From the IMG/VR virus record IMGVR_UViG_3300033463_000095, positions 8,017-72,016 of that record: 64,000 bases of DNA; one strand, written 5' to 3'. Positions 1,780 to 62,200 of this stretch are shown one piece after another. Position numbers and translations under genes: made by a program. Origin of the DNA: a virus. Lineage: Duplodnaviria; Caudoviricetes. The notes below the pieces were generated by a model, which searched no databases, was not told where the DNA came from, and worked only from the letters and a program-made list of their open reading frames with translations. How positions within the stretch are numbered: the stretch's first letter is position 1; each line of letters starts with the position of its first letter.

Positions 1780-3411
1780 TTGATTAATAGAAAAGAAGAA
1801 ATTAAGAAAAAAGGTTTTCATATATCTTTTAAAGATAGTACTCCAGAGGTTGAAGAATCTCAAAATAATTTTGTTCCAGTTGATTTTACAAAAATTAAAG
1901 TTGGAGCAAAAACATTAGAAGATGCTACTTTAGATTTAGGTGACTATAAAAAAATAGATAAAAGATTAGCAAGAAAAGAAGCAGTTTTAAAATCAATATA
2001 TGATAAAAACTGTACAGAAATGCGTGCTATATCTAATTTTTATTTCGAAACAAGTGGAATTTATTCAAGATTATGTAAATATATGGCTTATATGTATAGA
2101 TATGATTGAATGGTAACTCCTTATATAAATGAACAAAAAGATAAGGATAAAGAAAATACAAAAGCTAAAAAAGTTGAAGATAATGTTTTACAAGATTTTT
2201 ATAAGGTATTATTTTATTTAGATAATTCTGATTTAAAAAGATTATTTGGAAAAATTGCATTAAAAGTTGTTAGAGATGGATGCTTTTATGGTTATACTAT
2301 TCAAGGAAATAAAAGAATTGCAATTCAAGAACTTCCACTTCTTTATTGTCGTTCTAGATTTGAAGTAAACAATCGTCCAGTAGTAGAATTTAACATGAAA
2401 TATTTTGATATAATGTTTAAAGATGCTGGTCAAAAACAAAAGATATTAAAGGTTTTTGGTTCTGATTTTGAAAAAGGATATAAATTATATAAACAAGGTA
2501 AATTACCACCTTTATTTGTTGGAGATACTGAAGGATGATATGTATTAGACCCTGGTCGTGCTATAAAATTTAATGTAAATGGAGAAGATACTCCAATGTT
2601 TATGGCGGTAATACCTGCTATAATTGATTTAGATGAAGCTAAAGATTTGGACAAGAGAAAAATGGCTCAAGAGCTATTAAAAATTATTATTCAAAAGATG
2701 CCATTAGATAAAAATGGTGATTTAGTATTTGATGTTGATGAAGCTAGAGAATTACATAATAATGCAGTTAATATGTTAAGAAAAGCAATTGGTATTGATG
2801 TGTTAACTACATTTGCGGACGTCGATGTTGCCGATATGAGTGATAACCGCACAACTGCAGCTTCAGATGATCTCCAAAGAGTTGAGAGATCTGTATATAA
2901 TGAAGCAGGAGTTTCTCAAATGCAATTCAATACAGATGGTAATATTGCTCTTGAAAAATCAATTTTAAATGATGTTGCTTCATTCTATGATTTAATTTTA
3001 CAATTTCAAGCATTTATGAATGATATTATTGAAAAATATAATAAAAAACCTAAAAAATATTATTATAGAGCTCAAATCTTGACAACAACAATTTACAATT
3101 ATCAAGATATGGCTAAATTATATAAAGAACAAATGCAAGTTGGTTTCAGTAAAATGTTGCCGCAAATTGCACTTGGTCAAACTCAAAGTACAATATTAGC
3201 AAATGCTTACTTTGAAAATGAAATCTTAGATTTAGTTAATGTATTTATACCTCCTATGATGTCTAGTACAATGAATAGTGATGTATTAAATAGATTAAAT
3301 AATCAAAATAAACAAGAAAAAGAACAATCTGACAGTACAGGTGGTAGACCTGAAAAAGCAGATGATGAAAAGTCTGAAAAAACAATAATGAATGAAGAGA
3401 GTCAATCTTAA
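1780..3411 (+). CDS. Portal protein (TGA=Trp at 2107 and 2536)
   Basis: ORFs 1771-2109, 2110-2538 and 2596-3411 share a frame and are separated only by TGA (YRYD-W-MVTP, TEG-W-YVLD). Probable TTG start at 1780 after GAGGTG. Position between terminase and prohead protease. Confidence 0.85.
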
Positions 3412-3420
3412 TAAAAAATC

Positions 3421-3462
3421 GGACAAAATAAGAAAAATGATTAAACACTTTATTTATATAAT
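3421..3462 (+). promoter_or_regulatory. Phage-specific promoter motif GGACAAA-N29-TATAAT
   Basis: GGACAAA 3421-3427, 29 nt, TATAAT 3457-3462, upstream of the head genes. Confidence 0.7.
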
Positions 3463-3497
3463 AATAAGTGGAATATTAAGAAAGGATAGGTAGTTAT

Positions 3498-4868: not shown

Positions 4869-4892
4869 TTTTAATAAGGAGGATATAAAACC

Positions 4893-5423: not shown

Positions 5424-5443
5424 TTTAAGGAGGATTTATAATT

Positions 5444-6490: not shown

Positions 6491-6506
6491 TTTTAAAAAT
6501 ATAACT

Positions 6507-6560
6507 TGGGAAGGTTAAAAATTTCTTATAATAGAGATATTTTTACCTTCCCATTTTTTT
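6507..6560 (+). terminator. Intrinsic terminator after the major capsid gene
   Basis: TGGGAAGGT...ACCTTCCCA long hairpin followed by a T run. Confidence 0.75.
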
Positions 6561-6586
6561 ATTAGGAGAGAAAAGGAGTTTTATAT

Positions 6587-7177
6587 ATGAGAGAAATAGA
6601 CAATAAAGAAATTATTAAAGTTACTAACAGATTTAATGGTTCTGTTGGTTATACAATTAGAGATTTAAATAATCTATCTAGAGTGTTTAGTCCAAATGAA
6701 ACAAAAGAAATTACAATGGAAGAGTTAAGAAAATTATCTTGGGAAACAGGCGGCCGCACTTTAATTAACGATTATTTAATTATTCAAGATGAAGACGCTT
6801 TAAAAGAAATTTTAGGTAGTCCTGAACCTGAATATTATTATACAGAAGAAGATGTAAAAGATTTATTATTAAATAAATCATTAGATGCTTTAAAAGATTG
6901 TTTAGATTTTGCCCCAAGAGGAACAATTGATTTAGTTAAAAAATTAGCAGTTGAATTACCTTTAAATGATGTGGCTAAAAGACAAGCTATTTTAGAAATG
7001 ACTGGATTTAATGTTACTTCTGCAATTGAAATCAATGAAGCAACAAAAGAAGAGCAACCTGTAAATAATACAGGATTTAGAAGAATAGATAGTAAGCCTG
7101 AAAAAGAACCAGAAAAACCTACTGGAAGAAGAGTAGCTGTTGTTAACGATAATAAATATAAAGTTGTTAATAAATAA
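6587..7177 (+). CDS. Hypothetical virion-associated protein
   Basis: Intact 196-aa ORF with RBS in the head-neck region. Confidence 0.7.
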   Translation: MREIDNKEIIKVTNRFNGSVGYTIRDLNNLSRVFSPNETKEITMEELRKLSWETGGRTLINDYLIIQDEDALKEILGSPEPEYYYTEEDVKDLLLNKSLDALKDCLDFAPRGTIDLVKKLAVELPLNDVAKRQAILEMTGFNVTSAIEINEATKEEQPVNNTGFRRIDSKPEKEPEKPTGRRVAVVNDNKYKVVNK

Positions 7178-7195
7178 AAAATAGGAGGTGTGAAT

Positions 7196-8058: not shown

Positions 8059-9014
8059 ATAATTTAGGGCTTAGATTACAATATACTGGCGGCAACCGTC
8101 AAATAGATAGAATGAATGAAGATAAATTAAAAAGTTTGAAAAAAGCTCTTCTATATTCTTATCAAAGTGCAACTGCAATTTTAGCAGATGGTAGAGAATT
8201 TAGATGTTTAATTAATCCAGATAAGTTGAAAAATGTTTATGATGATAAAATTATTTCAATTCCTTTTAAAGATATCTGTTTAAATAAAGATAGAATTGGT
8301 AAAACAACAAATGGAATTGAAGATATAGGTATGAAGCCAGGTGATATATTTACATGGAAAGAAAATGAAACAGATTGATTAGTTTTTTTACAAAGATTTG
8401 AAGAAACTGCATATTTTAGGGCGGAAATCCGTAGATGTAAATATACAGTTACAATAGATGACACTGAATACAAGTGTTATGCGGCAAGACCTTCACTTAA
8501 TGAAATTGATTGAAGAGAACAAAAAGAGAAAGCTTGAAATGATATAGATTATACATTACAAATGTATATAACAAAAGATGAAAAAACTGAAGCATTTTTT
8601 CATAGGTTCGCAATTATAAAAGTAAATGGTCAACCTTGAGAGGTACAAAGTGTAGATAGTATGAGTTCAGATGGTATCATTCTTGTATATTTAAAAGAAT
8701 GATATAATAATAGTATCCAAGAGGCTAAAGATGCAGAAGATGCGAAAATCGCACCTGAGGATGATATAGACGCAAATGATCCTGTAATAATCGGCCCTGC
8801 CGCAGTTTATCCATATGATAAAAAATCTTATACTATTGAAAATGCTGAAGGTGGACAATGGGTTATAGGTAGTCAAAAAGCAAAAATAATAGACCAAGAT
8901 GAAACAATGGTTAAGATTGAAATAGTTTCAGGTCGTAGTGGTAATTTTGAGTTAAAATATGTAAGAGATGGTGAAGACGATATCATTTTGCCTATTGAAA
9001 TAAAATCATTATAG
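8046..9014 (+). CDS. Head closure/adaptor protein (putative, several TGA=Trp)
   Basis: Frame continues past TGA 8376 (TD-W-LVFL) and further TGAs (GQP-W-EVQ, LKE-W-YNN) to TAG at 9012-9014. C-terminal Ig-like segment. Confidence 0.65.
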
Positions 9015-11319: not shown

Positions 11320-11351
11320 AAAAGAGAGGGCGGCAACGGCCTCTCTTTTTT
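11320..11351 (+). terminator. Intrinsic terminator after the tail tube gene
   Basis: AAGAGAGG...CCTCTCTT stem followed by a T run; the loop contains GCGGCAA. Confidence 0.8.
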
Positions 11352-13512: not shown

Positions 13513-16500
13513 ATGGCTGATAGACAAATTAAATATGAAATTGATGTCGAGTTAAAAAGAGACTCTTTCGAAAAAATTAAAAAAAGTTTATTAGATTTAA
13601 ATAAAACTTTAACAGGAAATATAAATAAAGCAAGTCCTATTCGAGATATGTATAATTTATTAGACAAGTCTTGAAATAAAAAATTGGATCAATTAGATTT
13701 AAGTAAAATTTACGGAGAAATAAATAAAAGTGGACAATCTTTATTAGATTTTAAAAAATCTTTAGAATCTATGGGACCTGCAGGGGCTCAAGCTTATAAT
13801 GATTTTAGTCGAGCTGTTTTAAATACAAATTTACATCTTTCTGAAGGTAGTAAATTATTAGATAATATGGCAGATACTATGGCTAAGACTGTTAAGTGGG
13901 GTATTGCTTCTCGTATAATGAATAACATGGTTGGTTCAATAGAGAAAGCATGAAGTTTTAGTGTTAAATTAGATTCGTCATTAAATGATATTAGAATAGT
14001 TACTGGTAAAAGCGCAGATGAAATGGAGCGTTTTGCGGTAACAGCTAATAAAGCTGCAAAAGCATTAGGTGCTAGTACAAGAGATTATACAGAAGCATCT
14101 TTAATTTATTATCAACAAGGTTTAACAGATCAAGAGGCTCAAAGAAGGGCGGAAATCACTCTTAAAGCAGCTAATGTTACAGGTCAATCTGCACAAGAGG
14201 TATCTGAACAATTAACTGCAGTATGGAATGGTTATAATGTCGCTCTTGGAGAAACAGAAGAATATGTAGATAAATTAGCGGCAGTTGCTGCAAGTACAGC
14301 TGCTGATCTAGAAGAGTTATCTACTGGTATGAGCAAAGTAGCATCTGCTGCCGCAACTATGGGTGTAGACATTGACCAATTAAATGCTCAATTAGCTACT
14401 ATTGTTTCTGTTACTAGACAAGCTCCTGAATCTGTTGGTACTGCTTTAAGAACAATTTATGCTCGTATGGGTGATATTAAAGCAGGACTTGATGAAGAAA
14501 CCACTCTTGGTAATTATACATCTAAGATGGCTCAATTAGGAGTTAATGTTTTAGATGCGAATGGTAATTTAAGAGAAATGGGAGATGTTGTTGAAGAAAT
14601 TGGTAATAAATGAAATGATTTAACTAATGAACAACAAGTCGCTCTTGCTCAAACAATGGCTGGTACTAGACAATATAATAATTTGTTAGCATTATTTAAT
14701 AATTGAGATATGTACACAAAAGCTTTAAATACTTCTGCAAATGCTGCAGGTACTTTACAAAAACAACAAGATATTTATATGGAAAGTACTGAAGCTCATT
14801 TACAACAAATGAGAACCGAAGCAGAAAAAACATATGATATATTATTTGATACAAAAACAGTAAATAGTTTTATTGATGCTTTTACAGGACTTAATAGCGT
14901 ATTTAATACGTTTTTAAAAGGTCTTGGCGGAGGAATGAATGATTTTGTTTATTTTGGTTCACTTTTAACCAATATCTTTAATAAACAAATTGCAGGTGGA
15001 ATTGAAAATTCAATTCAAAAATTAAGAAACTTTAATGATAATAAAAAAACTATAGAGTTATTTGAGAACATAGTTAAAGAAGGTAAGGCTGGATATACAG
15101 ATGAGAATGGCCAAATGATATATGATATTACTGAGGCTGAAGCTGCAGATTTTGAACGTGCCAGTCAACTATTAAAATTACAAAGAAGTATAAAAAACGA
15201 AGATTTTAATAGACTAAATACTTTAAGACAACAAATTTTTGCGTATGATGAAATTCTTGAAAAAAGAGCTCTTGAAGATGGTATTGGTAGTGACATTACT
15301 AAAAAATTAGCTGATGAACTTGCTTCTTTAACGAACAAAAGAGAATTAATAACAGACGTTACTCAAAAAGAATTGTTAAATACAGAAGCTGCAAAAGAAC
15401 GAATTGCTATTTTGTTAGAAAGTAAAGCCAGTGAATTACAAAAAGTACAATTAAAAACTTTAAATGAAAAACTTGATAAGGGAGAAATTTTAACTGAAGA
15501 AGAAATACAAAAATTATTAAAAATTCAAGAAGAAATAAAAATTAAATTATTACATTTAGAAGAACAAAAATCAAAAGCATTAGAAATATCTAAGGAACAT
15601 GAAGAAGATGAAACCGCTGCAATTCAATATCGAAGAGATGCGCTTCAAAAGGAATATGAAGATGAAACAAAAATTAAATTTGAGGCTCAAGAAATAGGAG
15701 ATATTGTTAAAGGAATTTCTATAGCAACTCAATTGTGAGTTTCAGGAACTGGGATAGTAAAAACACTTTTTGATGATACTTTAACAGCAGGAGAAAAGCT
15801 TTCTCAAATATTTAGTGTACTTTCTTCAAGTTTAATAACAATAGCATTACATGCAAAAGATTTTAAAGAGATTGGAGCTTCTTTTGTAAAAGTATTTGCT
15901 AAAATAGGAATAGAAGGAATGGTTGCGGTTGCAGCTATTACTGCAATGGTAGGAATTTTTGTTTTAGTTACTGATGCTATAAAAGAAAGTCAAAGAGAAA
16001 TTGAAAAACTTGAACAAGCCACAAAATCTTTTGCTGACCAAGCAGAAAAGTTAAAAAATGAAGCTAAAGAAATAAAAGACACTTTTGATAAATATACTTC
16101 TATAGAAAAAACTTTAGAATCTTGTGCTGAGGGCTCTGAAGCTTGAAATAAAGCTATTGAAGAGCTTAATAAAAATATTTTAGAATTAACTCAAAAATAT
16201 CCTGATTTATTAAAAGTGCAAAATTTGTTTACTAGAGATAGTTCTACAAATGCTTTATTGGTAAATAAAGATACTCTAAATAATTATCTTGCTGAGTTGA
16301 ATAATCAGGAAAGAATTTCTCAAATTGCAAGTTTATCTAGTGGAGCAAAAGCAAAACAACTAAAAACTGAAAGTTCTAGAGAAAATTTATTAGATAGAAT
16401 AATAAATAGTATAGCTTCAACAGAAATAAGTTCGAATATACTTTTTGGAGGGAAAAAATTTACTCAAGAAGAATTTAATGACACTAGAGAAAATTTAAAT

Positions 16501-19500
16501 AAAAATTTATCTAGTTTATCTAATTTAACTCAAGAAGAATATAAGCAACAATTAGAAAAAATAGGTATTGATAAAAAATATATAGATAATTTAATAAAAT
16601 ATCAATCTCAAATAGATTTATTAATACAAAGTACAAATGATGTTTCGAACTCTTTAAAAAATACAGCTACTTTAATAGCTGAAACAGATCTTGGAGCTTG
16701 AACATCAGAAACAGAAAAACAAATTTATTCAAGTAAATATTTACAAAATTATAATGAAATAAGAGAAAACACTATAAAAGAAATAAATTCATTAAATAGA
16801 GTTTTTACTGATACAAATAAGGTTGCGGATTTAATAAAAAGATATAATGCAGCTATGGGAACAAATTATGAAATGGCTCAAGGTGGAAATTTTGTAAAAT
16901 ATGGGGGAGCTAATAGACAAATTTTAGTTCAAAATGGTGAACAGACTCAATATTTTACAAGAGAAGAACTTGCTTCTGGAATTGCTGCGGGCGAAGCTAG
17001 AAGTGGTATTGGTAAATTAAAAATAGATGAAATAGCACAAGAATTTAATCAAAAAATATCTAATAATATAGAAGGAATTTCAGAATTATTAGCAGATCAA
17101 ATTCTTTCAAGAACTTTTACATCAAAATCTTTAAATGAAAGTACTTATAATTTAATAAAAGATAATATAGATAATATTGATAATCTTTTTTCAGATTCAG
17201 ATTGAGAACAAATGGGATATTTAGGTCAAGAATGGGCAAATAATATTCGAGAACAATTTAAAAATAATTGAAATCAAGAAGAATATCAAAATTTCATTAA
17301 AGAACAATTTGAAAGTTCTTTATCTGCTGCAAGCGCATTAGCAAAAGAAAAATATAATTTTGATGAAAAAGATTTTGAAAACTATGGTCGATATATTGCA
17401 GAAATAGCAGATGAGTCTGAAGAATTGGCAGATGCCTTAGAAAAAGATGGTCAAGCTACAGGAATTGTCGTTCAAAGTATAATGAGAATGAATAAAGGTA
17501 TCGAAGATCTTGCTAAAGGAATTGAAAATTGGTTAGATATTTTAAAAAATAGTACCAAAGAATCTTATGAATATTGAGAAGCTTTAGATGGAATAAGAAA
17601 AAGTTTAGCAAATATATTAGATATTGAAGAAGATTTAATTGATTATAAATTTATTGTTGGCGATGAAAATACTGAAGGACATCTTGATGATATTACATTA
17701 GCTGCAGAGGGTAATGCAGAAGCAATAGAAAGATTAAGAGATGCTTATGCAGATCAAGTAATATTAGATATTGCAGCAAATATGGATTTTACAGATGAAA
17801 GTATTAAAACAACAAAAGAAAAAATGGTTGAAGCAATAAATGATATTCAAGCACAAATTCCTAATATAGATATTGGACCAGTAAATGATGAAGACTTCAT
17901 TAATTCTTTGCAAGCAATTATCGACAATGCTAATATGACAGTTGAAGATGCTAACACAATGTTTTCTGCGTTAGGTTTTCAAGCTGAATATCAAGAGGAT
18001 AACCAACAAACCACTTCTACAGTTCCTGTTTATACAACATATGAAAAAATCAATGAAACCCCAAAAGATGATAAGGGAGAAGAAATTCCTGGATATAGAG
18101 CTAAAAAAAGTACTTTTACAGTTCAAACAGATACTGTCACTTTACCTGGATCTATAGCTAGTTATTCAATGGGAGTTACTACTAATGATGGTAAAAATGT
18201 TAGAAAGCCTCAAATTAAAAAATTAATTAAAAAAGGTACTGGAGCTTCTAATAATTATTCTTCTAGAAATGCTGGAGGCGGTAGCCCAGGAAAATCAAGT
18301 GGTGGTAGCGGTGGAGGCGGAGGTTCTTCTAAACAGCCTAACACAATTGATCCAATTGAAAAAGAAAAAGATAGATATCATGATGTAAATATTCAATTAA
18401 AACAAATAAGTAATGAATTAAATAAATTAGATAAACAAAAAGATAAATTGTTTGGTGATGATTTAATTGAGAATTTAAATAAACAGCTAGAATATTTAAA
18501 TCAACAAATAGATACCACTAATGAAAAAATGAAAATTGCGGAAGGTGAAGCTCAAGAATTACAAGGTAAGCTTGCTGCAAGTGGTGTTACATTTAATCCA
18601 GATGGAACTATAAGTAATTATGCCCAAGCATATCAAGCTCAATTAAATTATGTAAATGGAATTATTAATCAATATAATTCAATGGGAGCTGAAGCTCAAG
18701 AAGGCTTTAAAGATACTGTTGAAAATGCAAAAGAAAATTTTGAAAAATTTATTGATAATATTAATAGATATGATGAAGTTATTACTGATTTAATACCAGG
18801 TCTTGCCGCAGATATCCAAGATGCTGTTGATAAACAAATTGATATTCAAATTGAAGAATTTGATATGGAAATTGAAATTCGTTTAGACATGGCTGAGGCG
18901 GAAAGAGATTGAAATGAATTTAAAAAGAAAATAATTGATGGTATAAAAGATGATGATATATTAGGCAATGCAATGGCTAAATTAGTAGATTTCTCTTCTT
19001 ATTATAAAGAAGATGATACTGGTGCAGCTCAAGCATTAAGAAAACAAATTGATAATACATTAAAAGAATTATCTCAAATGGATGAAACTGGAACATCTAG
19101 AGTTTATGGTGATAATAGAACTGCTGCTCTTGAAGATTTAAAGAAATATTATGATGAATTAAGAAAACAAATGCAAGATATTTTAAAACTTCAAGAAGAA
19201 ATTCATAAATCTTATATTGACATGATGAATGAAGCGCAAGAAAAATTTGATGAACAAGTTAAATCATATGAAATGATTAGTAAATTAGTTGAACATGATA
19301 AAAAAGTTATTTCAATGGTTTATGGCGAAGATGCTTATCGCCAATTAAGTGCTTTTTATGATAAGCAAGAATTAAATTATAAAGCTCAATTAGATTTCCA
19401 AAAACAACAAGTTGAATTCTGAAAAGAACAAATGGAAGCTGCGGAAGCCGGTTCTGAAGCGTGGGACGAAGCCAAGGAGAAATGGGCGGCCGCAACAGAA

Positions 19501-21378
19501 GAATTAAACAGTTTAATTGAAACTTCTATTGAAAATCTAGAAGATAAATATTTAAATGCAATAAATGCTATATTCCAAGATTTAAATAATAAAGTTACTA
19601 GTGGAGCTGGACTTGATTATGTAGAAGAAGAGTGAAATTTAATAAATAAAAATGCAGAACAATACTTAGATAATATTAATAGATTATATGGTATTCAAGC
19701 ATTAGAAAATAAATATTTAGATGCAATTAATGATAATGATAATATTGCCGCACAAAGACAACTTAAGAGAATAATGGATGAAGAACTTAAAGCCCTTCGT
19801 GAAAGAGATAAATTAACAGAATATGATATTGAAAGAGCAAATAAGAAATATGAAATTGCATTAAAACAAATTGCCTTAGAAGAAGCTCAACAAAATAAAA
19901 CACAATTAAGATTAAGAAGAGATACTCAAGGTAATTATAGATATGAATTTATAAGTGACATTGATCAAGTTAATCAATTACAAAACGATTTAGATGATTT
20001 GTATAATTCATTATATAATTTTGATAAAGAAAATTATGCAGATAATTTAAATCAATTATATGATGTATGAAAAGAATTCCAAGATAAAATGGCGGAAGCC
20101 GCACAAATTAATGATCCTCAAGCAAGAGCTGAAAGAGAGTTATTAATACAACAACAATATAGTGATTTAATAAATGGATTAGTTGAACAAAATGAAACTA
20201 TTCGTAGTAATTTATATGATTCTGCTTTTGAAGATTTAGCTAGATTATATGATAAAGATAAAAACAACTTCCTACAAATGACTCAAGCTGAACAAGATGC
20301 AATAATGAATGATTTAATTCCTTATTGAGACGCGGGAGTTCAACATATGGCTGATGTATTTGCAGGCGAAGGTGGATTTATTCCAACTTGTGAAGATGCT
20401 ATTGATGAACTTCATGAGGCTACTAAAGAGTATGAAGATGGATTAAAAGAAGTTGAAAATACTGCTGATATTAGTTTTGATAATATTGGTAATGGTATTG
20501 ATGATGTAATTGATAAAACTCAAGAACTATTAAAAGATAATAATGATTTAATTGATAGTTATAAAGAAGAAATGGATGCTATTGGTGGAGTTGTTAATGA
20601 ATTAGATAATTTAGTTAATAAGTACCAAGAAAGCGCGGACGCCGCTAAGGCAGCGGAGAAGGCAGCTTATGATTATTGAAGTGAACAACAACGTCAAGCA
20701 GCAGAGGCCGCCGCAAGAGATCAAGCTGAAAAAGAACGTAAAGCCGCAGAAGAAGCAGCTAAGAAAGCAGCAGAACAACCTGCTCCAGCACCGGTTGCCG
20801 CAGCTCCAAGTTATAGTAGTGGCGGAGATGGTCAATTAAATATTGGTGATACTGTTACATTTAGTGGAACTTATTATGCTACTTCGTATGGTGAAGGTTC
20901 AAGTGGTTCATTATATTCAGGTGTAGCTCAAGGAGTTATAGTTGATAGAATTAATGGAAATCCATTTGGTGTACATATTCACAGTGCTGATGGTAGATAT
21001 CCTGCATTAGGTTGGGTTAGACGTTCTCAACTATCTGGATATGATACTGGAGGTTATACTGGTGAATGAGGTAATTCTGGTCGTCTAGCTTTATTACATC
21101 AAAAAGAATTAGTATTAAATCAACAAGATACTAGAAATTTATTAAATGCAGTTAATATAATGAGAACAATTACTAATACTATTGGTAGCAAAGTATTAGA
21201 TAGATTAGCTACTATAAGTGCAAATAATGGATTTAATGGTGGAGTTGGTGGAGTATTAGATCAAAATGTTAATATTCAAGCAACATTCCCTAATGTAAGA
21301 GACCATAATGAAATAGAAGAAGCCTTAAATAATTTAGTTAATCGTGCTTCACAATTTGTACAAAACAAAGAGAGATAA
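13513..21378 (+). CDS. Tail tape measure protein (2621 aa, at least 17 in-frame TGA=Trp)
   Basis: Thirteen track ORFs from 13684 to 21378 share one frame separated by TGA. N-terminal TP901-like tape-measure region (LDSSLNDIRIVTG...EQLTAVWNGY...LRTIYARM), long coiled coils, C-terminal GYDTGGYTGE-W...LLHQKELVLN. Confidence 0.9.
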
Positions 21379-21446: not shown

Positions 21447-21470
21447 TTAAGAAAATTGGAGAAAAAGGAG

Positions 21471-24400
21471 ATGGAAGAAAATATGTATGAAAATAAAATA
21501 TTAGACGCCATTCAAATGCTAGTAGATAATGCTATTGATAAAGCAAGTTTCGATAAAACTATTAGAGGTGTTATTTCTAAATGCGTAGATGAAAAGAATG
21601 GTAAATATGTAGTTATTTATCAAGATAGTTCTTTTTATGCGTATAGTACAGATACTAGCCAAATTTATAGTGCGGGAACTCCTGTATATGTTTTAGTACC
21701 TCGAAACGATATGAAACAAACTAAAACTATTATTGGTTCAGTTAATAAACTTGGTTCTGATTACATTAATACTATTGAAAGTACTGATAGATATGAAGTT
21801 ATTGGTAATTCAGTAGCTACTTTAGATTCAGAACAAGGGGTTTGTTCTTATAAAGTTGATGGAGATGCTTTAATTCTATATGATAAAACTGCAGTTAGTT
21901 CAATAGTAGATATTGATACAGTTGCGGCAACCACTTATATAAAACAAGCTAAATACTTAACTTTAGGTGGAGAATTTAGAACAGCTTTAGCAAAAGAGCA
22001 AAGATATAAAGGTAATTATGGATTAGGTTTTGATATTAATTTTACAGATAATATGACTAATGAAACTGTTAAAAGAACATATTTAGTTGATGTAAATAAT
22101 ATGTTAGGTAATCCTTATGAATATACAAAAGCAAGTAATCAAAAAGTAGTATTTGACATTGATGGTGCTAATTTTGTTGATATAGATAAAATTTATTTAT
22201 TTTGTTATGACTTCCCTGTTACAACTGCGGAAACGAAACCAGACGATATATTCGTGGTTAATCTTACTTTAGAGGCAGCCGCCGCGCTTACAGATGATGA
22301 ATTAGCAGGAAATAAATTAACTTTAATAACTCCTCAAGGAATCTATTTTAGTAATAATGACAGTATCACATCTAGCAGAAAAATTGACACAGAGGTTAAA
22401 ATAGATAACAAAGTGGTTAACAAAGATTCGAGTCTTTTAAAATATTTTTGATTTAAAGAGAATTATAGTATAAATACATCTAGTCTATTGTATAATAGAT
22501 ATGGTGGTAATGGTTGGGAATGTTTAAATGAATATAATATAGTTGAAACTGATGGTAATAATAATCCAACTTTAATAGATTGAATAACTAATCAATCTAG
22601 TTATCTCATAAGAAAAAGTAATACAATAGCGAGAGAGACTGATTACAAGTGTGTAGTTTCTTACAATAATGAAATTGTATTAACTAAAAAATTTACTGTT
22701 TATAATTATAGTTCTAATTATATTGTAACCATTGATTCAGATAGTGGAACTTATTTTTCTTATGATAATGGACGTCCTACATTAACATGTACAGTTAATC
22801 AAATTGGTAGTTATGAGTATGTTTGAGGTATGATGAATGGCGGAGGCGCTTTTACTCCAATTCAAGAAACTACAACTACAAATACGGCATATCATACTGC
22901 CGCAGATAGATATACTGAGTTAGAAACTGGTTTAAGAAATGGAACTATTGTATTAACTTCAGCAATTCAACAAGAGTTTAGTGATTTAAAATATACTTTA
23001 GAACAATATAATAATGATATTATGAGAGTAGAAGATAATGTTATTTATAATTTAAAATTAAATATGATAACTAATTTTGCTACTTTTGTATGTTCAGTTT
23101 ATAATAATGGAGCTTATATTGGTAAAGGCTCTATTAAAATAGAAAACGATTTAAATACTAGTGATAATAGTTATACTTTAATAATTAATAATGGAGACCA
23201 AGTATTTAAATATAATGGAGATGGAATTTCTCCAACTAGTAGATCATTAGATAAGCCTCAAGAATTATATCCATTATCTTTTACTTTATATGATGAAAAA
23301 GGTAATGAGATTAGTAATGATGTAATAAACGCAGATAAGGTATATTGGACAGTACCTACTTCTGATACTATGATTAAAGTATCTGCAGTTCATGGTAATC
23401 CAAGTGAAGTTGATGAGTATGCGGAAACTGCTACTTATACAGGCTATAAATCATTTAATTTTGAAATACCTGTATTATACACTGCTAATAAAACAAGAAA
23501 CACAATTCAATTAAAAGTTAAATATAAAAATAAAATAGTAGTTGCTAATACTGAATTAATGTTCTTAAAAGAAGGTGAGTCAGGTTCTAATGGTACTGAT
23601 TTTATATGTAGAATTGTACCTAATACAATAGATGGAGCTATACCTCCTTTATATCCAATAGTAACTTGAAATAATAATGCGGCAGCTGGTGCTACTAACC
23701 CAGTAATTAACTTTACACCTCGAACTAGTGGAGTATGGTTTAAGGCTCAATTATATCATAATGGTAGTGAAATATTCGATAGTCCTGTTTCTGGACCTAC
23801 AACTGAAGATAAAAATGTCATACTTAAATGGGAAATGATAAAAAACAAATATGATACAACTCATTCAGATGTATCTAATTTTAATGTTAATAGTTCTACT
23901 GGAGTTTTTAGTTATGATAATTTAGATAATATTACAAATGAAACTTTAAAATCTAATCCTGTAAATATAGTTAAATGTACTTTGACTTATGATGAAATTG
24001 ATTATGTTGCGACAATACCTATTATACTAGTTAAAGTTAATAATAGTGGAAGTGCACAATATAAGGTTGAATTAATTGAAAATACAGGATTTAGATATGC
24101 GATGTATACAACCGACGGCCGCACTCCTATTTATGATAATTCTAATCCATTTGCATTAAAGGTTATACAAACAGTTGAAAATACTGACCAAGATATTAGT
24201 ATAAATACATTAACTGATTATGCTGTTGATTATAATTGAAGTGTAAAAGGTTTAATTTATGCTAATGATTGAGAAACTCAATCAAATTTAATTTTAGATA
24301 CTTTACGTTCTAGAAATTTACAAAGAAATGAAAAATATTATAAACCTGTTGATAATTTTAATGGTTTATGTTTAAGTAATGCATTATTTTGTGATATTAA

Positions 24401-39218: not shown

Positions 39219-39237
39219 TTGCCGCTATCTTTTTTTG
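39198..39237 (+). terminator. Terminator after the holin
   Basis: TAGCG-GCAGCT...AGTTGC-CGCTA stem followed by a T run. Confidence 0.65.
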
Positions 39238-41483: not shown

Positions 41484-43523
41484 ATGAAAGTTAATTATCC
41501 TTATTTAAGTGATAGTAATTTTTTAGATACTATTGACACAATGCATTATCTAGAACAATATGTTAAGATTACTGCTCTTGATTGAGATGAAAGACCAATT
41601 AAAGATATTCAAGGCATTATTAACAATGGTAGCATTAGTATTGATGGTAAATCTGCTGTAAGAAGAACTATTAGTTTAAATTCTTCTTTTGGTAGTAATG
41701 TTACTGATGTAAATAACATTTTTTCTATTAATAGAAAAATTAATGTTGAAATTGGTTTTAAAAATAATACTAACAAATATGTTGATTATCCTATTATATG
41801 ATTTCCACAAGGTGTTTTTATTGTTATTTCCGCAAATGTGAGTCATAGTTTAGGTGGAGTAACAGTTAATCTACAAGCAAGAGATAAAATGAGCTTATTA
41901 AATGGAGATTGCGGCGGTGTGATCCCCGCGTCAACACGATTAGATACATATGAAACTGTGGATAGTGAAGGTAATTGAGTAGTTGAAAAACCTTGTATTG
42001 ACCAGATTATTAGAGAAGTAGTTAATCACTTTGGAGAAGAACAATTAAGTAGAATTATTATAAGTGATGTAGACAAGAGAATTAAGACTGTTATGAAGTG
42101 AATTGGTAATACACCTATTTATTTAATTACAGAAGGTGGAAATAATTGGTATACTACTGATTTTAGTAGAGCGGTTGCCGCAGGTTCTTATACTCAATAT
42201 GATTATAATGCAGATGTTGGTTATATTTATTCAGATTTTACTTACGTAGGTGAATTTATTGCAGATGCTGGAAATACAGTTTGCAATGTGTTAGATAAAA
42301 TAGTTTCTTATCTAGGTGGTAATTATGAATATTTTTATGATGTGTATGGTAATTTTATTTTTCAAGAAGTAAAAAATTATATGAATATATCTCATCAAAC
42401 AGTTGAAATAGATAAAATAAAAAATAGCGACTATCTTGTAGATATGAGTAGAGGTAGAATAGCTTATGATTTTAGTAATAAAAATATAATTACTTCTTAT
42501 TCTAATTCGCCTCAATATAATAATGTAAAAAATGATTTTATTGTATGAGGAATTAGAGAAACTTCTGAAGGACTTACTTTACCTATTAGATATCATATGG
42601 CTATTGATACAAAACCTAAAACAGGAAATATATATAAAGTATTTTTCTATATAGATCCGGATGATGGATTAGAGAAAGCGAAAATACCTATTAAATATGG
42701 TAGTTATGCGGCAATTACTGCTACACCAGGTAAGGCTGGAGTATTCTATGAGGATACCAGTACTGGCAATATATATATTTGAAATGGCAGTGAGTATGAA
42801 CAAGTAAGCGATAGTGAATTTGTAAGAATTATGACTAATGATTGGAGAAGTGAGCTATATTTACAAGGGGTTGCCGCTGAACCATTGGGTATAGCATCTA
42901 ATTATTATTATACTGAATTAGCTGCTGAATGACCTAAATTATACAATTTAAAAGCAGATAGTCATACCGATAGTGAAGGTACTTATTATACAGGTGCTTT
43001 TTATCAAGATGTGTTAGATAATCCTTCTGGTATTGATTATTTCTTAGATTTTATTGATTCAGAAGCTGCTATATCTAAATTTAGTATTAAAAATATTGGT
43101 AGAAGAACTATTGTTGAGAACAGTAATGATTTTAATTGTGTATTTGAACCTACCATTCCTAATTTTGTTATTATAAATACTGCTAATCCTGAAGAGGCCG
43201 CAGAAAAACGTGCTGAATGTGAGGCTAGAGGACAAGCGTATATTCAAGTGGATGGAAACATATTTGATTCACTTGCGGTTGGTGGTAATTTTAATAGTTG
43301 CTATTGAGAAATAAAAAATTTATTATATACAAAAACTGGATATAATGAGACTATTCAAATACAAGCATTACCTATTTATCATATTGAACCTAATATTAGA
43401 GTTAAGGCTTTTGATAGTAATAGCGATATATATGGTGATTATATGATTAATAGTATATCATTACCTTTAGGTATAGATGGACAAATGTCGATTAGCGCTA
43501 TTAGAGCTAATGAAAAAATATAA
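41484..43523 (+). CDS. Baseplate hub/DUF5048-like tail protein (putative)
   Basis: 679 aa via TGA: ITALD-W-DERPIKDIQG...SIDGKSAVRRT, LGGNYEYFYDVYGNFIFQE, ALPIYHIEPNIRV. Confidence 0.6.
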
Positions 43524-51037: not shown

Positions 51038-51514
51038 TTAAACTCCTGTTGAACCGAAGCTTCCTGTGCCACGGTCTGTTTCTGATAAATTTTCAACTTC
51101 TTCAAATATCATTGGTATATAGGGTAATAATATCATTTGAGCTATGCGGTCGCCGGGTTGTACTACCTGTTCGGCATCTGTATCATTATGTAACGCTACT
51201 ACTACTGAACCTCGATAATCTGAATCTACAACCCCAGTACAGTTTGCAGGTCTAAGTCCTTGTTTAGTAGCAAGACCAGAACGTGCAAAGATTGCAGCAA
51301 AAGTATTATCTGGTAATTCAAAAGCTAATCCAGTTTCAATTTTAACAGTTGTATGTGCGGGAATGGCGATTGAAGAATCTGTAGCAGCATAAAGATCATA
51401 ACCAGCAGCTTCCGCACTTCCTCGAGTTGGTTCATGGGCTAATTCATTTAACTTTTGATATTTAATTAATTTTGGTGTATAATTATCAAGGATATCTTGT
51501 CCAATTCCAAACAC
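51038..51514 (-). CDS. dut: Trimeric dUTPase
   Basis: AAGYDLYA, ARSGLA, GVVDSDYRG, GDRIAQ, RGTGSFGSTG. Confidence 0.95.
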   Translation of the reverse strand: MFGIGQDILDNYTPKLIKYQKLNELAHEPTRGSAEAAGYDLYAATDSSIAIPAHTTVKIETGLAFELPDNTFAAIFARSGLATKQGLRPANCTGVVDSDYRGSVVVALHNDTDAEQVVQPGDRIAQMILLPYIPMIFEEVENLSETDRGTGSFGSTGV

Positions 51515-53333: not shown

Positions 53334-53786
53334 TTAAGACTCCTTATATAATTTACATATACCTTTAAAATGGTCTAATTCATGTTGTATAATATTTGAC
53401 ATGCGGCCGCCTTCAGCTATTTCTTTAGTAACACCATTTTCATCTGTGTATGTACACCATACTTTTTGAGCACGTTCTATTTCTTCATATTTTCCAGGGA
53501 CACTTAAACATCCTTCTAAATATTTTTGACATCCGCGGCTACGGGTTATTACAGGATTAATCATAACTACAGTTTGATTAGCCCACGAACAAACACATAC
53601 ACACACAGGCGTACCAATTTGTATTGCAGATAATCCTTTTCCAGCAGGGGCTGCCGCCAATGTATCTTTTAAATCTTGTATTATTTGTTTTATTTCTTCT
53701 GTTGCTATATCTTCAACAGGTTGACTGATAGAAGATAATACTTTTCTATCTTCTTCATTATTATAATTTAAAATTGGTTTAATCAT
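53334..53786 (-). CDS. def: Peptide deformylase
   Basis: All three PDF motifs are present: GKGLSAIQIG, EGCLS, QHELDH. Confidence 0.92.
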   Translation of the reverse strand: MIKPILNYNNEEDRKVLSSISQPVEDIATEEIKQIIQDLKDTLAAAPAGKGLSAIQIGTPVCVCVCSWANQTVVMINPVITRSRGCQKYLEGCLSVPGKYEEIERAQKVWCTYTDENGVTKEIAEGGRMSNIIQHELDHFKGICKLYKES

Positions 53787-55428: not shown

Positions 55429-55918
55429 TCTCTACCTCTCCTGTTTTCATATTATATACATTTTGATTACGACTTCCGCGCCATTTTAGTGTAATATCAC
55501 GCTCTTCAAGAATAAAAGGACCTTCAATTAAATAATCTATATTTTTTAATATATAATCTGTATTATTTTCTTTTTGTAAATTTTCAAGAGTATATCCTGT
55601 TCAAATAACAATTTTAATATCAGGATATTTATCTTTTGCTTTGTATATAAGTTGTTTACAAAATTCTCTTTTATTATCAGTATCTAATGGTTCTCCACCA
55701 AGAATACTTAAATTCCTTTGTATCCCATTTGCGGCAATGGCATTTATAATAGTCTGAATTAATTCATCCTCATACCAAACATCTCCGCCTTCAAAATCTC
55801 ATGCTTCTGGATTATGACATCCTTTACAGTGAAAATGACAACCTTGAAGGAATAAACTAACGCTCACTCCTTCTCCATTGACGAAATCATTGCCATTAAT
55901 ACCTGCGACCCTAATCAT
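55421..55918 (-). CDS. nrdG: Anaerobic ribonucleotide reductase activase (radical SAM)
   Basis: DFVNGEG...FLQGCHFHCKGCHNPEA-W, ILGGEP, VI-W-TGY, WRGSRNQ; two TGA=Trp. Confidence 0.92.
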
Positions 55919-58900
55919 TCCAACTCTCCAATTTTTTAGAATGTTTGTATCTTTGTTCAGTCTCTTGTTGTTTTCCTTTATTAAAAGCAGTTTTATAATC
56001 ACCAGTTAAATATCCTGTAACGCGTCTAAGTTGTTGAATATGCGTACTTCCGCATATTGGACACTTATTATTAAATTCATCAGTATAACCGCAATCTAAG
56101 CAAGTGTCATTAGGTACATTAATTGCAAAATAAGGAATATCTTTATCCATAGCATAATTAACTATTTTTTCAAGAGCATCTAAATTATTTTTAACTCCAC
56201 CATCTAATTCAACATAAGTAATACATCCTGCATTACTATATCCAGTTAATTGACTTTCTATATCTATTTTATCAAATGGACTCATTTCTTTTCATACAGG
56301 AACATGAATACTATTTGTAAAATAATCTCTATCACTTACATTAGGAATAATTCCATATGCTTTTTTAAATTTCTTCATTGAAGTGTAACACATTGTTTCA
56401 GCTGGAGTATAATAAACACCAATATTTAAATGTAAATCTTTTTTAAATTGTGCGCATCTATCTTTAAATAATTGCTCAATTCTTTTAGCGAGCTCCATAC
56501 CTTCAGGTGTAGTATGGTCTGTACCAATTAATATTTGAAGCGTTTCCGCCAAACCAATTTGACCTATAACAAGAGTTCCATGTTTCATGGCAGATTCAAC
56601 TGTTTTTCCATCATAGCCTAACATTATGTTATTTTCATACATAAATTTAGCACTTTCAGGTGATTGACTTATAATTCAATTATATCTTTCTACCAACATA
56701 TCTTTTGCTTCATGAATTTTAGTATCTAATAACTTTATAAATGTTTCAACTACTTGTTCTCTATTATTTTTTCCGGCTGTTAATAATCCAGTCCCAGGAA
56801 TTAATTCAAGTGGTCCTGGGTGTTTTTCAACTGCTTTCATAGCAAGAGTAGGCATTACAATAGTAACAGGACATATATTTCCGCGGCCATCTTTAGTTTG
56901 AGGATTTGTTCCAGGCTCAGCATTAATATCGCTTCCATTATAAGTGCGACATCCCATCGTACTAACGTAGGTCTTAGGATCGTTTATATCGAATCCCGCA
57001 TTAACAGACCAATCTACATTAACATAGTTAGGATATAACCTTTGAGCTGTTGATTTAAGTGCTAATTTAAATAAATCATAGTTAGGGTCTCCAGGTTTAC
57101 GGTTAATGCCTTTCATACATTGGAATATTCCACATGGGAAGATTGGAGTTTTCCTAACTTTGCCAACACCTTCAATAGAACCTTCTAATAATGCCTTTGT
57201 AACCATTCTACCTTCGGGTAAAGTACAAGTTCCATAATTAATAGAAGTAAAAGGTAACTGATTTCCGCTTCTGCTTTGTAATGTATTTCCAAATATTCTA
57301 TAAAGTTCGCTACACTTTATACGTTCTCTTATGAACTGCTATATATTACTATATAGAGTAGACTATATCTTCATCCTTTTTAAGGATGCTCGCCATTTCA
57401 GCTACCAATAGCTTGTAGCTTACGTCTTTCGACTAGTCGTTAGGCTTTTATATATCATCATTTTCATATTTAAAATGAAAACCACCAGTAGTTTTTATCT
57501 TTCCTTTTAAAACTTTACAAATATTTGTTGCATATAAATTTAATTGTCTTGCACATTCTTGTATAGATTCATATTTAATTCCTGTTTCTATACAAATAAT
57601 AGCTTTTTTATCTTTCTTATTAGCAATAATTTTTTGTCTAGTTTCTTCAGAACAAGGATGAGTTATTGACTTAGGTTTTCTTAATTTAGCTTTATGCTCA
57701 TCTGTTAATTTTCTTCCTTTTTGAGCTAAACTAATTTTTCTTTTCTTTTCTTCTGAACATTTCTTTCCTAATCCATTTTTATTACCCTTTAAAGCTTTAG
57801 CAATTTTATCTCTTACTTCTTGGGGTAACTGAGGTGAAGTTCCGCCCTCCATAATATTATATCCAAAATTTCTATTTTGAGTATTATATTTTTTAATTAA
57901 ATTTTTTTCCATTTGACAAGCTTGCTCTTGAGTCAATTGTTTTGCCAATATTAAATGTTCAAAATTATTTCATCCATATTTTTGAATAGCTTGATAAAAA
58001 TGTGGACTAGATTTATAATTATTTCCATTTCTACCCCATCTATTTTCTGGATTTTGTTTTGTAATTCCAACATATTTTTTATTATTGATTTTATTTATAT
58101 GTATATAAACATAATATATGTTTTCTATATTAACACCTCCTTAAAAGATGTTAATGATGATATAATTTAGCACGGTAAGTTGTCCTATAGGGAGTTCCTC
58201 CGTTTAAGCGAGATTCATAATAATATTACTATTATTATGCCCAAATTTCTAGGTTGTGATACATTCCTTGAACAGCTTGCATCAATTCTTTTTCTGTCAT
58301 ATCCATTGCATATTTGTATGCTTTTGAATATTTTTTATATCTTTCATCTTCAATAGACCAATCTAATTGAGGTAAATCATCATCAAATAAATCTAATTCT
58401 TTTCCTTCAATATATTTTAATCCATCTTTAAAATGTTTACAAAAACTCATACGAACATATGGAACCATAGTCCAGTCTAAATGACTTGCACTAACTCCAC
58501 CAAATTGTTGTAAAGATTGTAATTGGAATAATACTGCAACTAATTGAAATGCTGTATTAATAGAACGAGCTGGTCTTACATCTGTTTGTCTTGTATTAAA
58601 ACCTTCTGCTAATAATTTATCAAAAGGAACAGTTAAACAGTTATGCATACCAACTGCATATGCATCTAAATCATGAATATATATTTCATTATTTAAATGA
58701 TTTTCTCTTGCCATTGGTGATACAATATAATTAAGAGCATAATCTTTCATAAGCTCGCTTCTTGCTTCACCCATGCGGCCGCCAAATGAATATTCATCAA
58801 CATTAGCATTTTGATTTTGAACATCACTCGCTTCAATTTTTTCTTTAATATTTTGCATTAATTTACTATTAGCATTTCTTATTTTAGTTCTTTGCTCTCT

Positions 58901-59161
58901 ATAAAGAATATATTCTTTAGCCACATCTTTTCTTTTGGTTGACATTAAACCTTTTTCAACTAAATCTTGAATTTCTTCTATTTCAGGAGTTTCATTTACA
59001 TCTAAATAATACCCCTCAATATAATCTGCAATATTTTCTGCTTTTTCATTTGCATAATCTGTAATTTCGCCATCTACATTTTTAAATGCTGCTAAAATAG
59101 CATTTTTAATTTTAGAAGAATCAAATGGCACAATTCTTCCATCACGTTTTTTTACGTTCAT
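55911..59161 (-). CDS. nrdD: Class III anaerobic ribonucleotide reductase, spliced (exons 59161-58251 and 57288-55911)
   Basis: ATP cone; HDLD, QFGG; spliced junction MYHNL|NTLQSRSGNQLPFTS; MGCRT, GNIC, YFTNSIHVPV-W, C-terminal RRVTGY glycyl-radical loop. Confidence 0.93.
57289..58250 (-). ncRNA. Group I intron in nrdD (962 nt)
   Basis: 5' exon ends in U (CACAACCT); intron ends in G (ATATTTGG); removal restores the frame. R-like AACGACTA and S-like AAGATATAGTCT elements are present. Confidence 0.88.
57448..58128 (-). CDS. Intron-encoded GIY-YIG homing endonuclease with NUMOD3-like repeats (ATA start)
   Basis: YYVYIHINKINNKKYVGIT...AIQKYG-W-NNFEH...E...GYN; GGAGGTG RBS 6 nt before ATA 58128; TGA=Trp. 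Confidence 0.85.
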
Positions 59162-59265
59162 AATTCCTCCTTAATTATTTAAATTATTTTAAAGGATTTT
59201 TAACCTTTATATAAATATAAAAATTTAAATTAATAGATTAATCAGTTTTGTTAAAGGTTAGATTA

Positions 59266-62200
59266 TTAATTATCTAGCCCTTCTCTTTCATGAGTTATTT
59301 TTATATCTCCATTATTAAAAATTTCTTCTATTTTATATAATTGATGAAAACTAGTTTTACTATAAGTTTTTGCTACAAAAGTATCATCTCTGCGGAAACC
59401 AGCAACTAATAATTTTACACCACGAGTAAACCATCCTTTTTCTACAACATGTTTTACATTATCTTCACCTAATTCACTAATTTGTCTATTAAACATAGCA
59501 TAATATTCTTTTGTGAACTTAACATTTACTACTTCTGTTGGAGTTAATAATGTTACGGATGAACGCGTATCATTTTTACCAATTACAGTTCCAGCAATTC
59601 TATATATTTTATAAATAGGAATATCTCTACCATTTCTTTTAAAGAAGCAATCTATTGTTGGGTTAGATGTTAATTCATTAAAATCCACAATTCCATATTT
59701 ATTATTATTTACATGTGCCAATTCATGTTCATGATAATAGAAACATAATGCTTCCATTTCATATGAACTAATATTACCTTGAGCATATTTATCCCAACAC
59801 TCTTTAAATAATATTTTATTAAAATTATTAAGGATTTCCGCTTGATTATTTTTTATCCAATCTCTTGCTTTATCCATAACATCTTGATATATTTTATCCC
59901 ATCTTGTTTGAAGAATACAAGTCAATCCATTGATAACTTCTAACTGGTCTAAATCAAAATGTTTATTATAAAATTCTTCACAAACATTATCAAACACATA
60001 ATATTTGCCAACTTTTTTATTTGCTTTTAAATATTTTGTAAATAAAAATGTATGTTTTTGTAAATCTAATTCTTTAGGAATTAAATCGTGTTGAATTAAA
60101 CCATTAAAGTTTTGTAAAGTTATTCTTTTTTTTGCTTCACATACTTTAGATATATAATATATCATAACTACTTTACGTGCGGAAATGCCTAATTCATCTG
60201 CCCATGATTGCTCTAATTTATCAAATGCTCCCGCTTTAATAAGGCTAAACATTGCACTTTTATTTAATGGACATTTATTCATAAAATCAACTATTCCCGC
60301 ATAAGGTCTATGTTCTATTATTTGTTCTATTGTTGCTCCATTAATATTACTTAATGCTTTCATACCAAATAATATTTCATTATTTTCTTTATCAGGTTTA
60401 AAACTATAACTAGATTTATTAATATCTACTAAACTAACTTTAATACCTCTTAAAGTAATATCACCAATAGCCTTTGCCACTTTACCATAATCAGTCCCAC
60501 GTTCTTTGCGTTCAACATTTCCTTCTTCATCTTCTTCAAATTCATCATCTTCTTCAAGACTTCCACTATTAACAACTAAACATGCAGTATTTCAATAAAT
60601 TGGATTCCAATTAGTTGCAATATACATTGTTTGAAAACCAATAAATGAATATGCTAACGCATGAATTGTAGAGAATGAATACCCCATTTGAGGACCTACA
60701 CCACAAGCCCATACATATTTACCAAGATTTTTACTTGCCGCCTGATCTAATATCTGTTGATGAAGTGCAGGTATTTTACTCATTTGCTTTTTACCTACAA
60801 TTTTACGTGCAGCATTTGCTTCTGCAAGAGTAAAATTACATATATCTTTATCCATTAACATTTTCATTAATTGCTCTTGACTTGGCGGAACTCCATAAGA
60901 ACTTTTAAAATATGGTTCTAATGTTTTTTGTTCTGCTTGAGTTAATCCATATTCACGCATTTCTTTATACCATAATGATATATCATTTTTAAATCTAATA
61001 TATTTTTCCATAGGAGTTTCTTGACCTTTTTCTGCAGTCATAAGTCTCATTAATCCATTTGCATCTGACATTTCTAAAATTGAGGTTGGACGAATTTTCT
61101 TTGCGGCTTGTGAACCTACTTCACTATCAAATTGAAAAATATTTAATACACTATTTTCTTGAAGTGTTTTCCATATTTCTTGATTATCAATAGGTAATAC
61201 ATTAGGATGAAAATATTTATTATAAACTTCTCTTAATGTTAATGTGTTATCTATTTCATTATATTCTTGTAATAATCTAATTGCTTCGCACAATTTATCT
61301 TGAACTTCTGTTACTAAAAAGTCATATTTTGTCATACCGCATGCTTCTGCCATATGTAAATCATATGCTGTGATAATTTCACCTTTTGGGGTTCTCATAA
61401 ATGTACCAAATTCATATGGATCTTCATCGAATAATATTACTCCTGAGGCGTGGCTACTACGTTTATTAACTAATCCTTCAATTCCTCGCATAATATCTAA
61501 TAAACCTGGATAGGTATTAACTTCATTGATAAACATTTTTATAGGTTTTCTACCTTTATCTTCATTTCCATTGACAACATCATCAAGAGGCCATAGAAAT
61601 CCACGTTCACTTGGAATTAATGATGATAAATATTGTGCTGTATCAACATCTATTCCATCTGGATAATCTTCACTACGATAACCGCGGCAAGCGGTTAAGA
61701 TTGTTGATCGAGTTCCTTCTGTACCAAATGTTGCTATTAATGTACAACCTAAATTTTTTCTTGATAAATCATCTATATCTTTATTAAAATTTTGACCACG
61801 TTCTTTTTTTATTTCATTTAATATCTTAGGACGTTTACTCGGACATAGATCTAGATCGATATCCTTTAATGGACTATATCTTTCACAATAGATTACTGAG
61901 AGTATTTTACTTCATCTATTGCTAGAATGCGCTACGGAATAGTGCTTATCTCTACTCCTCTATATTTTAGTCTCTACACTTATATAATTTTTTCAATAAT
62001 ATCCTTTATAAAGAGTTCCTTCTTTGATAGCTCTATCTAATTGAGTATGACCTTTTAAACCAAGAAAAGATAAAACTGCAGTTTTTGCATTGAATATTCT
62101 TATTAAATTATATTTTTCATCATACATTGCAATTTTTTTACCATTAATAGCTTTATCTCCCTTTTTGCCATACATTCCATTTTTTTCTCCAGCTACTTTC

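Follow-up and report, generated by a model that had tools for sequence, protein, structure and literature searches.

Dense GCGG words and a GCGG-N3-CCGC dyad in a stop-codon-recoded gut or rumen phage and its relatives

Why does an AT-rich phage genome carry dozens of copies of a heptamer that its base composition predicts about once? The question arises from a 64-kb stretch (hereafter the window) of the single 72,016-bp virus record IMGVR_UViG_3300033463_000095 (29% G+C), a tailed phage whose habitat is the gut or rumen, in which GCGGCAA and its complement TTGCCGC occur 32 times, 20 times on the plus strand and 12 on the minus strand; the whole record holds 37 copies. An initial annotation of the window had listed 31 positions, all of them right, overlooking only the plus-strand copy at 13377, and its estimate of about one or fewer copies from base composition agrees with dinucleotide shuffles of the window (0.99 ± 1.12, maximum 5). 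Synonymous shuffling does not reproduce the count either: with codons permuted within each of 74 genes called under genetic code 4, so that all proteins and the codon usage of each gene were kept, the record retained 8.3 ± 2.2 heptamers (maximum 14; z = 12.9). The reading that we tentatively favour is that of a site selected for its density and bound by a DNA-binding factor with two-fold symmetry that belongs to the phage lineage.

The heptamer itself is not the unit. As the initial annotation had also remarked, its GCGG/CCGC core is common, and it is this tetramer that carries the signal. Measured against the synonymous null and, unless stated otherwise, over the whole record, GCGG/CCGC is the most enriched tetramer (219 versus 106, z = 13.7–14.4) and TGCGG/CCGCA the most enriched pentamer (116 versus 36). 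The enrichment runs through the entire window (1–64000) with preferred flanks K-GCGG-M-A (K, G or T; M, A or C), the 32 heptamers being a subset of it; KGCGGMA occurs 83 times, at ratios of 3–9 in every bin. On the 5′ side, TGCGG and GGCGG reach 3.2-fold and 2.9-fold, with AGCGG at just 0.84-fold, and on the 3′ side GCGGCA and GCGGAA stand at 3.5-fold and 3.0-fold, with GCGGCT and GCGGAT at approximately 1.0-fold. Among the ten NCGN contexts only GCGG/CCGC is enriched, the rest lying at 0.66–0.99. The same is true among tetramers made of G and C alone, where the others fall to 0.55–1.26 once GCGG is masked, a result that disposes of generic GC clamps and local clustering of GC.

The word also has a strict symmetric form. 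CGG-N3-CCG is found at 13 sites against 0.35 expected (z about 22, a 37-fold excess), including six perfect GCGG-N3-CCGC 11-mers, and GCGG-N3-CC, with CC at +7/+8 after GCGG, at 37 sites against 2.0. GCGGCAA is thereby resolved into a GCGG half-site followed by the commonest spacer of this 11-bp dyad: CAA is the spacer most often found after the left half-site, and GCGGCAACC is present in 10 copies against 0.49 expected. Spacings of N1, N2, N4 and N6 give 0–1 sites (none for N6), and the reverse arrangement, CCG-N3-CGG, is absent from the record. Of all stems of 3 or 4 bp that enclose three spacer bases, only the CGG/GCGG stem departs from the null. The bases at +7 to +10 downstream of GCGG lean towards CCGC and, with codon phase allowed for, dyad-consistent bases exceed the shuffles by 4 standard deviations at +7 and by 10 at +8; the mirror positions upstream show no matching excess. 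Two half-sites set end to end with no spacer, GCGGCCGC, also recur (4 versus 0.22 expected; 6750–6757, 19486–19493, 53403–53410 and 58775–58782). With one stem and one spacing enriched and the reverse absent, the preference is for a sequence rather than for a hairpin of given stability; we accordingly rejected a general enrichment of palindromes or hairpins, as well as quasi-palindrome correction, since the reverse, though equally stable, does not occur. The specificity, the fixed odd spacing and the missing reverse arrangement together point to a reader that has two-fold symmetry and acts on duplex DNA.

Twelve of the dyads lie in the window. The perfect 11-mers are at 20092–20102 (GCGG-AAG-CCGC), 20635–20645 (GCGG-ACG-CCGC), 24649–24659 (GCGG-TGC-CCGC), 35060–35070 (GCGG-TAA-CCGC), 42171–42181 (GCGG-TTG-CCGC, containing the heptamer at 42175) and 63818–63828 (GCGG-CTG-CCGC). 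The others are CGG-CGA-CCG at 36–44, within a gene that ends at 1288; CGG-CAA-CCG at 8090–8098 and again at 40168–40176, overlapping the heptamers at 8089 and 40167; CGG-AAG-CCG at 19442–19450; CGG-TTG-CCG at 20792–20800, overlapping the heptamer at 20795; and CGG-TCG-CCG at 51147–51155, in the dUTPase gene on the minus strand. Four of the twelve fall in the last 2 kb of a giant open reading frame (ORF) of 2,621 amino acids (13513–21378), those at 19442 and 20092 among them, and the 11-mer at 24649 lies in a second giant ORF of 2,790 amino acids (21456–29828), adjacent to the first.

Does the signal reside in the DNA or in the proteins that it encodes? The word is in excess in every frame in which codon choice can make it, namely GCG Gxx (79 observed, 43 expected), xGC GGx (44, 23), CCG Cxx (8, 2.4), xCC GCx (56, 20) and xxC CGC (16, 2.1), with GCGG and CCGC affected alike on the sense strand, and intergenic DNA contains 13 copies of GCGG/CCGC against 2.3 expected from composition. 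Because the antisense strand is invisible to translation and the word is nevertheless enriched there too, the cause acts on DNA. Codon choice is visibly bent: the share of the rare codon GCG among Ala codons is 18% before G and 6% elsewhere, while G-ending codons of the other four-fold families stand at 1–5%; the Ala codon GCC makes up 24% before GC and approximately 4% elsewhere; and the Ala-Ala pairs GCC GCA and GCG GCA occur 24 and 23 times, where independent codon choice gives 3.5 and 5.8. This use of rare codons is a real gain and not a remnant. The coding contexts named in the initial annotation (Ala-Ala, Gly-Gly-Asn, Ser-Gly-Asn, Pro-Gln, here within Leu-Pro-Gln, and Cys-Arg) are right, Ala-Ala providing 26 of the 32 window heptamers (16 as GCG GCA, 10 as xTT GCC GCx). 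So is its placing of two copies in terminators: that at 11330 sits in the loop of an intrinsic-terminator-type hairpin on the plus strand (11320–11351; −18.7 kcal/mol, z = −4.6) and that at 39219 within another on the same strand (39197–39236; −16.9 kcal/mol, z = −3.7), each hairpin being followed by a T-run. Of its interpretation as a DNA-level selected site, the first half stands, as the signal survives protein-preserving shuffles and is seen in every usable frame, in either orientation and between genes. A translational codon-pair bias, expected in one sense-strand frame, is rejected on the same grounds. The heptamer as unit and the alternative cause offered with it, avoidance of the restriction site GCWGC (W, A or T), did not survive.

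That alternative, by which the word is a by-product of avoiding GCWGC (or GCAGC) or of an Ala-Ala codon-pair preference in translation, is hardly credible, although it has a real observation behind it beyond the predominance of Ala-Ala heptamers: GCWGC is depleted (79 versus 117, z = −8.4). The depletion is confined to the Ala-Ala frame, which is undecisive alone because GCW GCN and GCS GCN (S, G or C) are zero-sum there. We therefore pushed GCWGC down to its observed count in each gene and scored coding sequence under this constrained null, which yielded 12.9 ± 2.4 heptamers against 34 real, 124 GCGG against 204, 21 KGCGGMA against 81 and 0.9 dyads against 13. Furthermore, GCS GCA pairs number 47 and GCS GCT pairs just 6, though both avoid GCWGC, and the frames without Ala-Ala are enriched, as is the antisense strand. 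Given the excess in those frames, the imbalance of GCS pairs and the constrained null, GCWGC avoidance fails as a full explanation; it can account for only approximately 5 of the 37 heptamer copies.

Other words are depleted as well. GATC is at half its expectation (72 versus 148 under codon shuffles). CATG and GCGC likewise fall short of their Markov expectations, and the pattern suggests pressure from restriction systems. Such pressure would suit an account in which the GCGG word is the target of a sequence-specific DNA modification, or of a dimeric enzyme of restriction–modification type, and the phage gains from having many sites. Type II enzymes typically recognize interrupted palindromes with an odd spacer, as here, and two glycosyltransferases are encoded within the nucleotide-metabolism block of the record. 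Restriction targets are, however, normally avoided, whereas this word is over-represented, and methylated cytosines would tend to decay rather than build up. Moreover, the record has no match to C5 (PF00145) or N4/N6 (PF01555) methyltransferases, and no C5 match was found in five relatives, among them a complete genome (G007, below). We consider this account quite improbable.

The distribution of sites favours density over position. GCGG stands at 1.5–2.6 times expectation in each of nine 8-kb bins, spanning early, structural and replication genes. Its orientation follows the G/C skew, which is strong and tracks gene direction, and does no more than that; the initial annotation was thus correct that the word is not strand-polar as Chi is, and a primase or lagging-strand signal is rejected for want of any polarity past base skew. 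In three genomes, per-strand GCGG spacing is Poisson-like rather than even, with coefficients of variation near 1 (0.8–1.25) and maximum gaps that are not shortened. Between relatives aligned at approximately 72% identity, GCGG is kept in 19–33% of comparisons, no better than similar words, and 3 of 13 dyads are kept in place, so that positional conservation of sites is also rejected. Density is maintained while individual sites turn over, and the even spread over the genome combined with this turnover indicates a pressure on density and not on place.

Turnover, random spacing and a uniform effect over gene classes would equally be produced by a neutral, context-specific bias of mutation or repair that makes GCGG out of near-cognate words by a mechanism resembling very-short-patch repair. 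GCTG/CAGC, a neighbour of the word, is specifically depleted (245 versus 343 under the codon-shuffle null, 0.72-fold, z = −8.2), as this bias would have it, and GCAG is not. Deamination repair predicts depletion of the transition neighbours, yet GCAG and GTGG show none; GCTG is a transversion away. To enrich the xGC GGx and xxC CGC frames, the bias would have to alter the word elsewhere along its length, a 37-fold excess of dyads specific to N3 would call for a process that is aware of the dyad, and the searches of the record and (for C5) of five relatives turned up no cytosine methyltransferase. This neutral origin has, in our judgement, only a slight chance of being right. Taken by itself, GCTG/CAGC ranks second, behind only GATC, among the depleted tetramers, with its transition relative GCAG/CTGC at expectation; the depletion may be a separate avoidance or simply mirror the gain of GCGG.

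How far does the word extend beyond this record? All 22 IMG/VR loci found through the portal protein (54–77% identity) have a GCGG excess (z = 2.3–10.3) together with GATC depletion. G001:C1, a TGA-recoded phage contig of 73 kb that was binned with a ‘Bacilli’ metagenome-assembled genome (MAG), has a 1.95-fold GCGG excess and 21 CGG-N3-CCG dyads, 14 of them perfect 11-mers. In G007, a complete relative of 131.6 kb that carries terminal repeats, GCGG occurs 512 times against 242 expected (z = 24) and is in excess in every 10-kb bin, alongside 17 dyads. Inverted half-sites at one fixed spacing are thus common to three genomes, with 13, 21 and 17 CGG-N3-CCG sites against 0–11 at other spacings and 0–2 in the reverse arrangement. 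Neighbours that recode TAG share the excess (1.5–2.1-fold). In eight relatives (L019, L020, L031, L043, L047, L061, L062 and L066) ORF coverage rises only with TAG read through and the GCGG excess is kept; in these the recoded stop codon appears to be TAG and not TGA. Many of the best matches to the NrdD protein of the record lie in species-representative MAGs (L024–L085) on contigs of 60–165 kb whose ORFs open only with TGA or TAG read through; these contigs are recoded phage genomes binned into bacterial (in one case archaeal) MAGs.

The word has limits. GCGG is not in excess in a 129-kb phage contig (G002:C9) that shares NrdD (80% identity) and little else with the record, and a gene-content contrast between it and the enriched phages found only 22 of 170 ORFs shared. 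Five cultured phages distantly related by portal protein (Enterococcus EF5, Brevibacillus Sundance, Clostridioides difficile LIBA2945, Lactococcus 949 and a Staphylococcus SPbeta-like phage) carry the word at control counts, and phAss-1 has a weak GCGG excess (1.26-fold) with no TGCGG excess. The unenriched 129-kb contig (L117–L123; 129,311 bp, 28.5% G+C), from a sheep-colon ‘Bacilli’ MAG, has a peculiarity of its own: it contains no GATC and no CATG at all, against approximately 320 and 380 expected from a maximal-order Markov model.

Bacterial DNA offers a further comparison. Four standard-code bacterial contigs sampled from the MAG that holds the 73-kb phage contig show no enrichment, with GCGG ratios of 0.3–1.3 and KGCGGMA at 0–0.5 per 10 kb against 12 in the phage. 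In this 1.1-Mb MAG (G001), 12 of 16 TGCGGCAA octamers and all 14 perfect 11-mers are on the phage contig. Across 80 other genomes of the same order there are approximately 21 perfect 11-mers in all, no more than for a reversed control and hundreds of times sparser than on the phage contig. These data weaken the case for a host-derived word; co-binning with a MAG is, however, no proof of host.

They bear on a Chi-like role, in which (K)GCGG would regulate a host helicase–nuclease of AddAB or RecBCD type and, being present in both orientations, would ensure that every double-strand end of phage DNA quickly gains protection or enters the recombination pathway. In Firmicutes, Chi is a short, GC-rich word that finishes with GCGG (AGCGG in Bacillus subtilis, GAAGCGG in Staphylococcus aureus), and a high density without positional conservation is what such a role would give. 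Indeed, phages are known to accumulate host Chi by site turnover until it is their most frequent octamer (Zheng et al. 2025, PMC12315714). Nevertheless, AGCGG itself is at 0.84-fold here, against 3.2-fold and 2.9-fold for TGCGG and GGCGG, and polarity does not exceed base skew, unlike in phage LLS, where 20 of 23 Chi sites share one orientation and cluster near an end (PMC12315714). The strict N3 dyad (13 sites, against none for N6) plays no part in Chi recognition. Relatives carry their own RecJ-like, AAA_24 (Sak4-type) and RuvC-like genes, the last also present in the window, whereas Chi-rich lambdoid phages are typically without a Rec module (PMC12315714). With neither the co-binned contigs nor the 80 genomes of that order enriched, we regard a Chi-like role as unlikely.

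We return to a density-selected site for a symmetric factor. GCGGCAA would be the commonest form of a word that the phage lineage keeps dense through synonymous codon choice, with GCGG/CCGC as its core, K-GCGG-M-A as its best flanks and the 11-bp dyad GCGG-N3-CCGC as its full form. Such a word would be read in duplex DNA by a putative dimeric, sequence-specific protein, probably encoded by the phage lineage, that may accept one good half-site paired with a weak one, and selection would act on the number of sites per genome. The word could set phage DNA apart from that of the host, with protection, compaction, replication, recombination or packaging as the purpose. A phage-encoded gyrase is an unlikely reader: the 4-base stagger of type IIA cleavage gives these enzymes an even-centred symmetry, and the dyad is odd-centred.

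Several points weigh against this reading. The reader is a putative protein whose binding we infer from sequence patterns, and the record is, by CheckV, only approximately 49% complete. Site turnover and Poisson-like spacing fit biased mutation or repair equally well as selection on density. Only approximately 10% of GCGG sites form part of a complete or nearly complete dyad; the functional unit may thus be the single half-site, with the dyad secondary. Finally, since binning does not prove the host, the reader may be host-encoded.

A more specific proposal, possible but doubtful, is that of a self tag: a clade of large gut and rumen phages, AT-rich and with a recoded stop codon, would mark its genomes with GCGG and GCGG-N3-CCGC by means of rare codons, at densities hundreds of times those of the surrounding bacteria, to be read by a putative phage-encoded dimeric factor that tells phage from host DNA. 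Such a factor might spare phage DNA from a phage nuclease, or recruit the machinery of replication, recombination or packaging.

Literature searches for the word found nothing relevant. The closest published parallel is provided by Chi-rich phages, namely the Escherichia coli phages of the LLS class, P1 and Pseudomonas MD8 (Zheng et al. 2025, PMC12315714). There, as here, a short word that looks independent of the host is the top over-represented oligomer, lies in coding sequence and occupies sites that come and go. Chi in those phages is asymmetric, strongly polar, clustered near the ends and abundant in the host genome, whereas the present word is non-polar, has a strict dyad form, is evenly spread and is not enriched in the bacteria examined. 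The Chi of Firmicute AddAB is likewise a short, GC-rich, GCGG-containing word in an AT-rich setting; here AGCGG is not favoured, the flanks are T/G at the 5′ and M-A at the 3′ side, and there is a dyad.

Dispersed binding sites within genes form a second class of comparison, including the Noc-binding sites (NBS), the SlmA-binding sites (SBS), the centromere sites of phage N15 and the stoperators of mycobacteriophages. All are many, scattered and often in coding sequence, and the first three are dyad-symmetric. Those sites measure 12–16 bp, number in the tens, hold largely fixed positions and have a known binding protein, in contrast to the hundreds of half-sites with turnover and the putative reader proposed here. 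DNA uptake sequences, such as the uptake signal sequences (USS) of Pasteurellaceae, with a GCGG core, and the DNA uptake sequences (DUS) of Neisseria, similarly occur in both orientations and all frames, with some copies in terminators. They mark bacterial chromosomes, with hundreds to thousands of copies in that of a competent host, whereas the word described here marks the genomes of virulent phages, with no word-rich bacterial genome among those sampled.

Chi, uptake sequences and KOPS are all words selected throughout a genome, and each has brought a DNA-scanning machine to light. Here, a well-defined word with a strict dyad is strong enough to skew codon choice over the entire genomes of phages in an abundant, uncultivated group, and to identify its reader would be to learn how the DNA of these phages is handled or marked. 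Members of the clade could also be recognized by the word, including contigs mis-binned into bacterial MAGs.

The genetic code of the record departs from the standard one. ORFs of at least 100 amino acids cover 72% of it under code 11 and 93% with TGA read through, and both giant ORFs, with 17 (2,621 amino acids) and 27 (2,790 amino acids) in-frame TGA codons, appear only then. Because the TGA codons of NrdD face Trp (seven) or Tyr (five) in bacterial standard-code homologues, the alignments indicate that TGA is a sense codon read as Trp and not as Gly. ARAGORN finds no tRNA gene in the 72-kb record. In the complete 131.6-kb relative, none of the 26 tRNA genes carries an anticodon that would read TGA.

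The record encodes tailed-phage structural proteins (portal, virion and tail), the nucleotide and replication proteins NrdD, NrdG, a DnaE-type polymerase, thymidine kinase and dUTPase, and additionally a peptide deformylase, a sigma-like factor and the RuvC-like resolvase. At 80–97 kb (L109), the complete relative encodes gyrase A and B subunits of its own, an NAD-dependent ligase and a DnaB-type helicase, as well as a RecJ-like exonuclease and an AAA_24 (Sak4-type) protein. Two genes of the window are interrupted by genes for homing endonucleases of NUMOD3/HNH type: the NrdD gene (55911–59161) is in two ORFs with one such gene between them (57448–57948), and the DnaE-type polymerase gene (59266–63795) is likewise in two ORFs flanking another (61960–62739).

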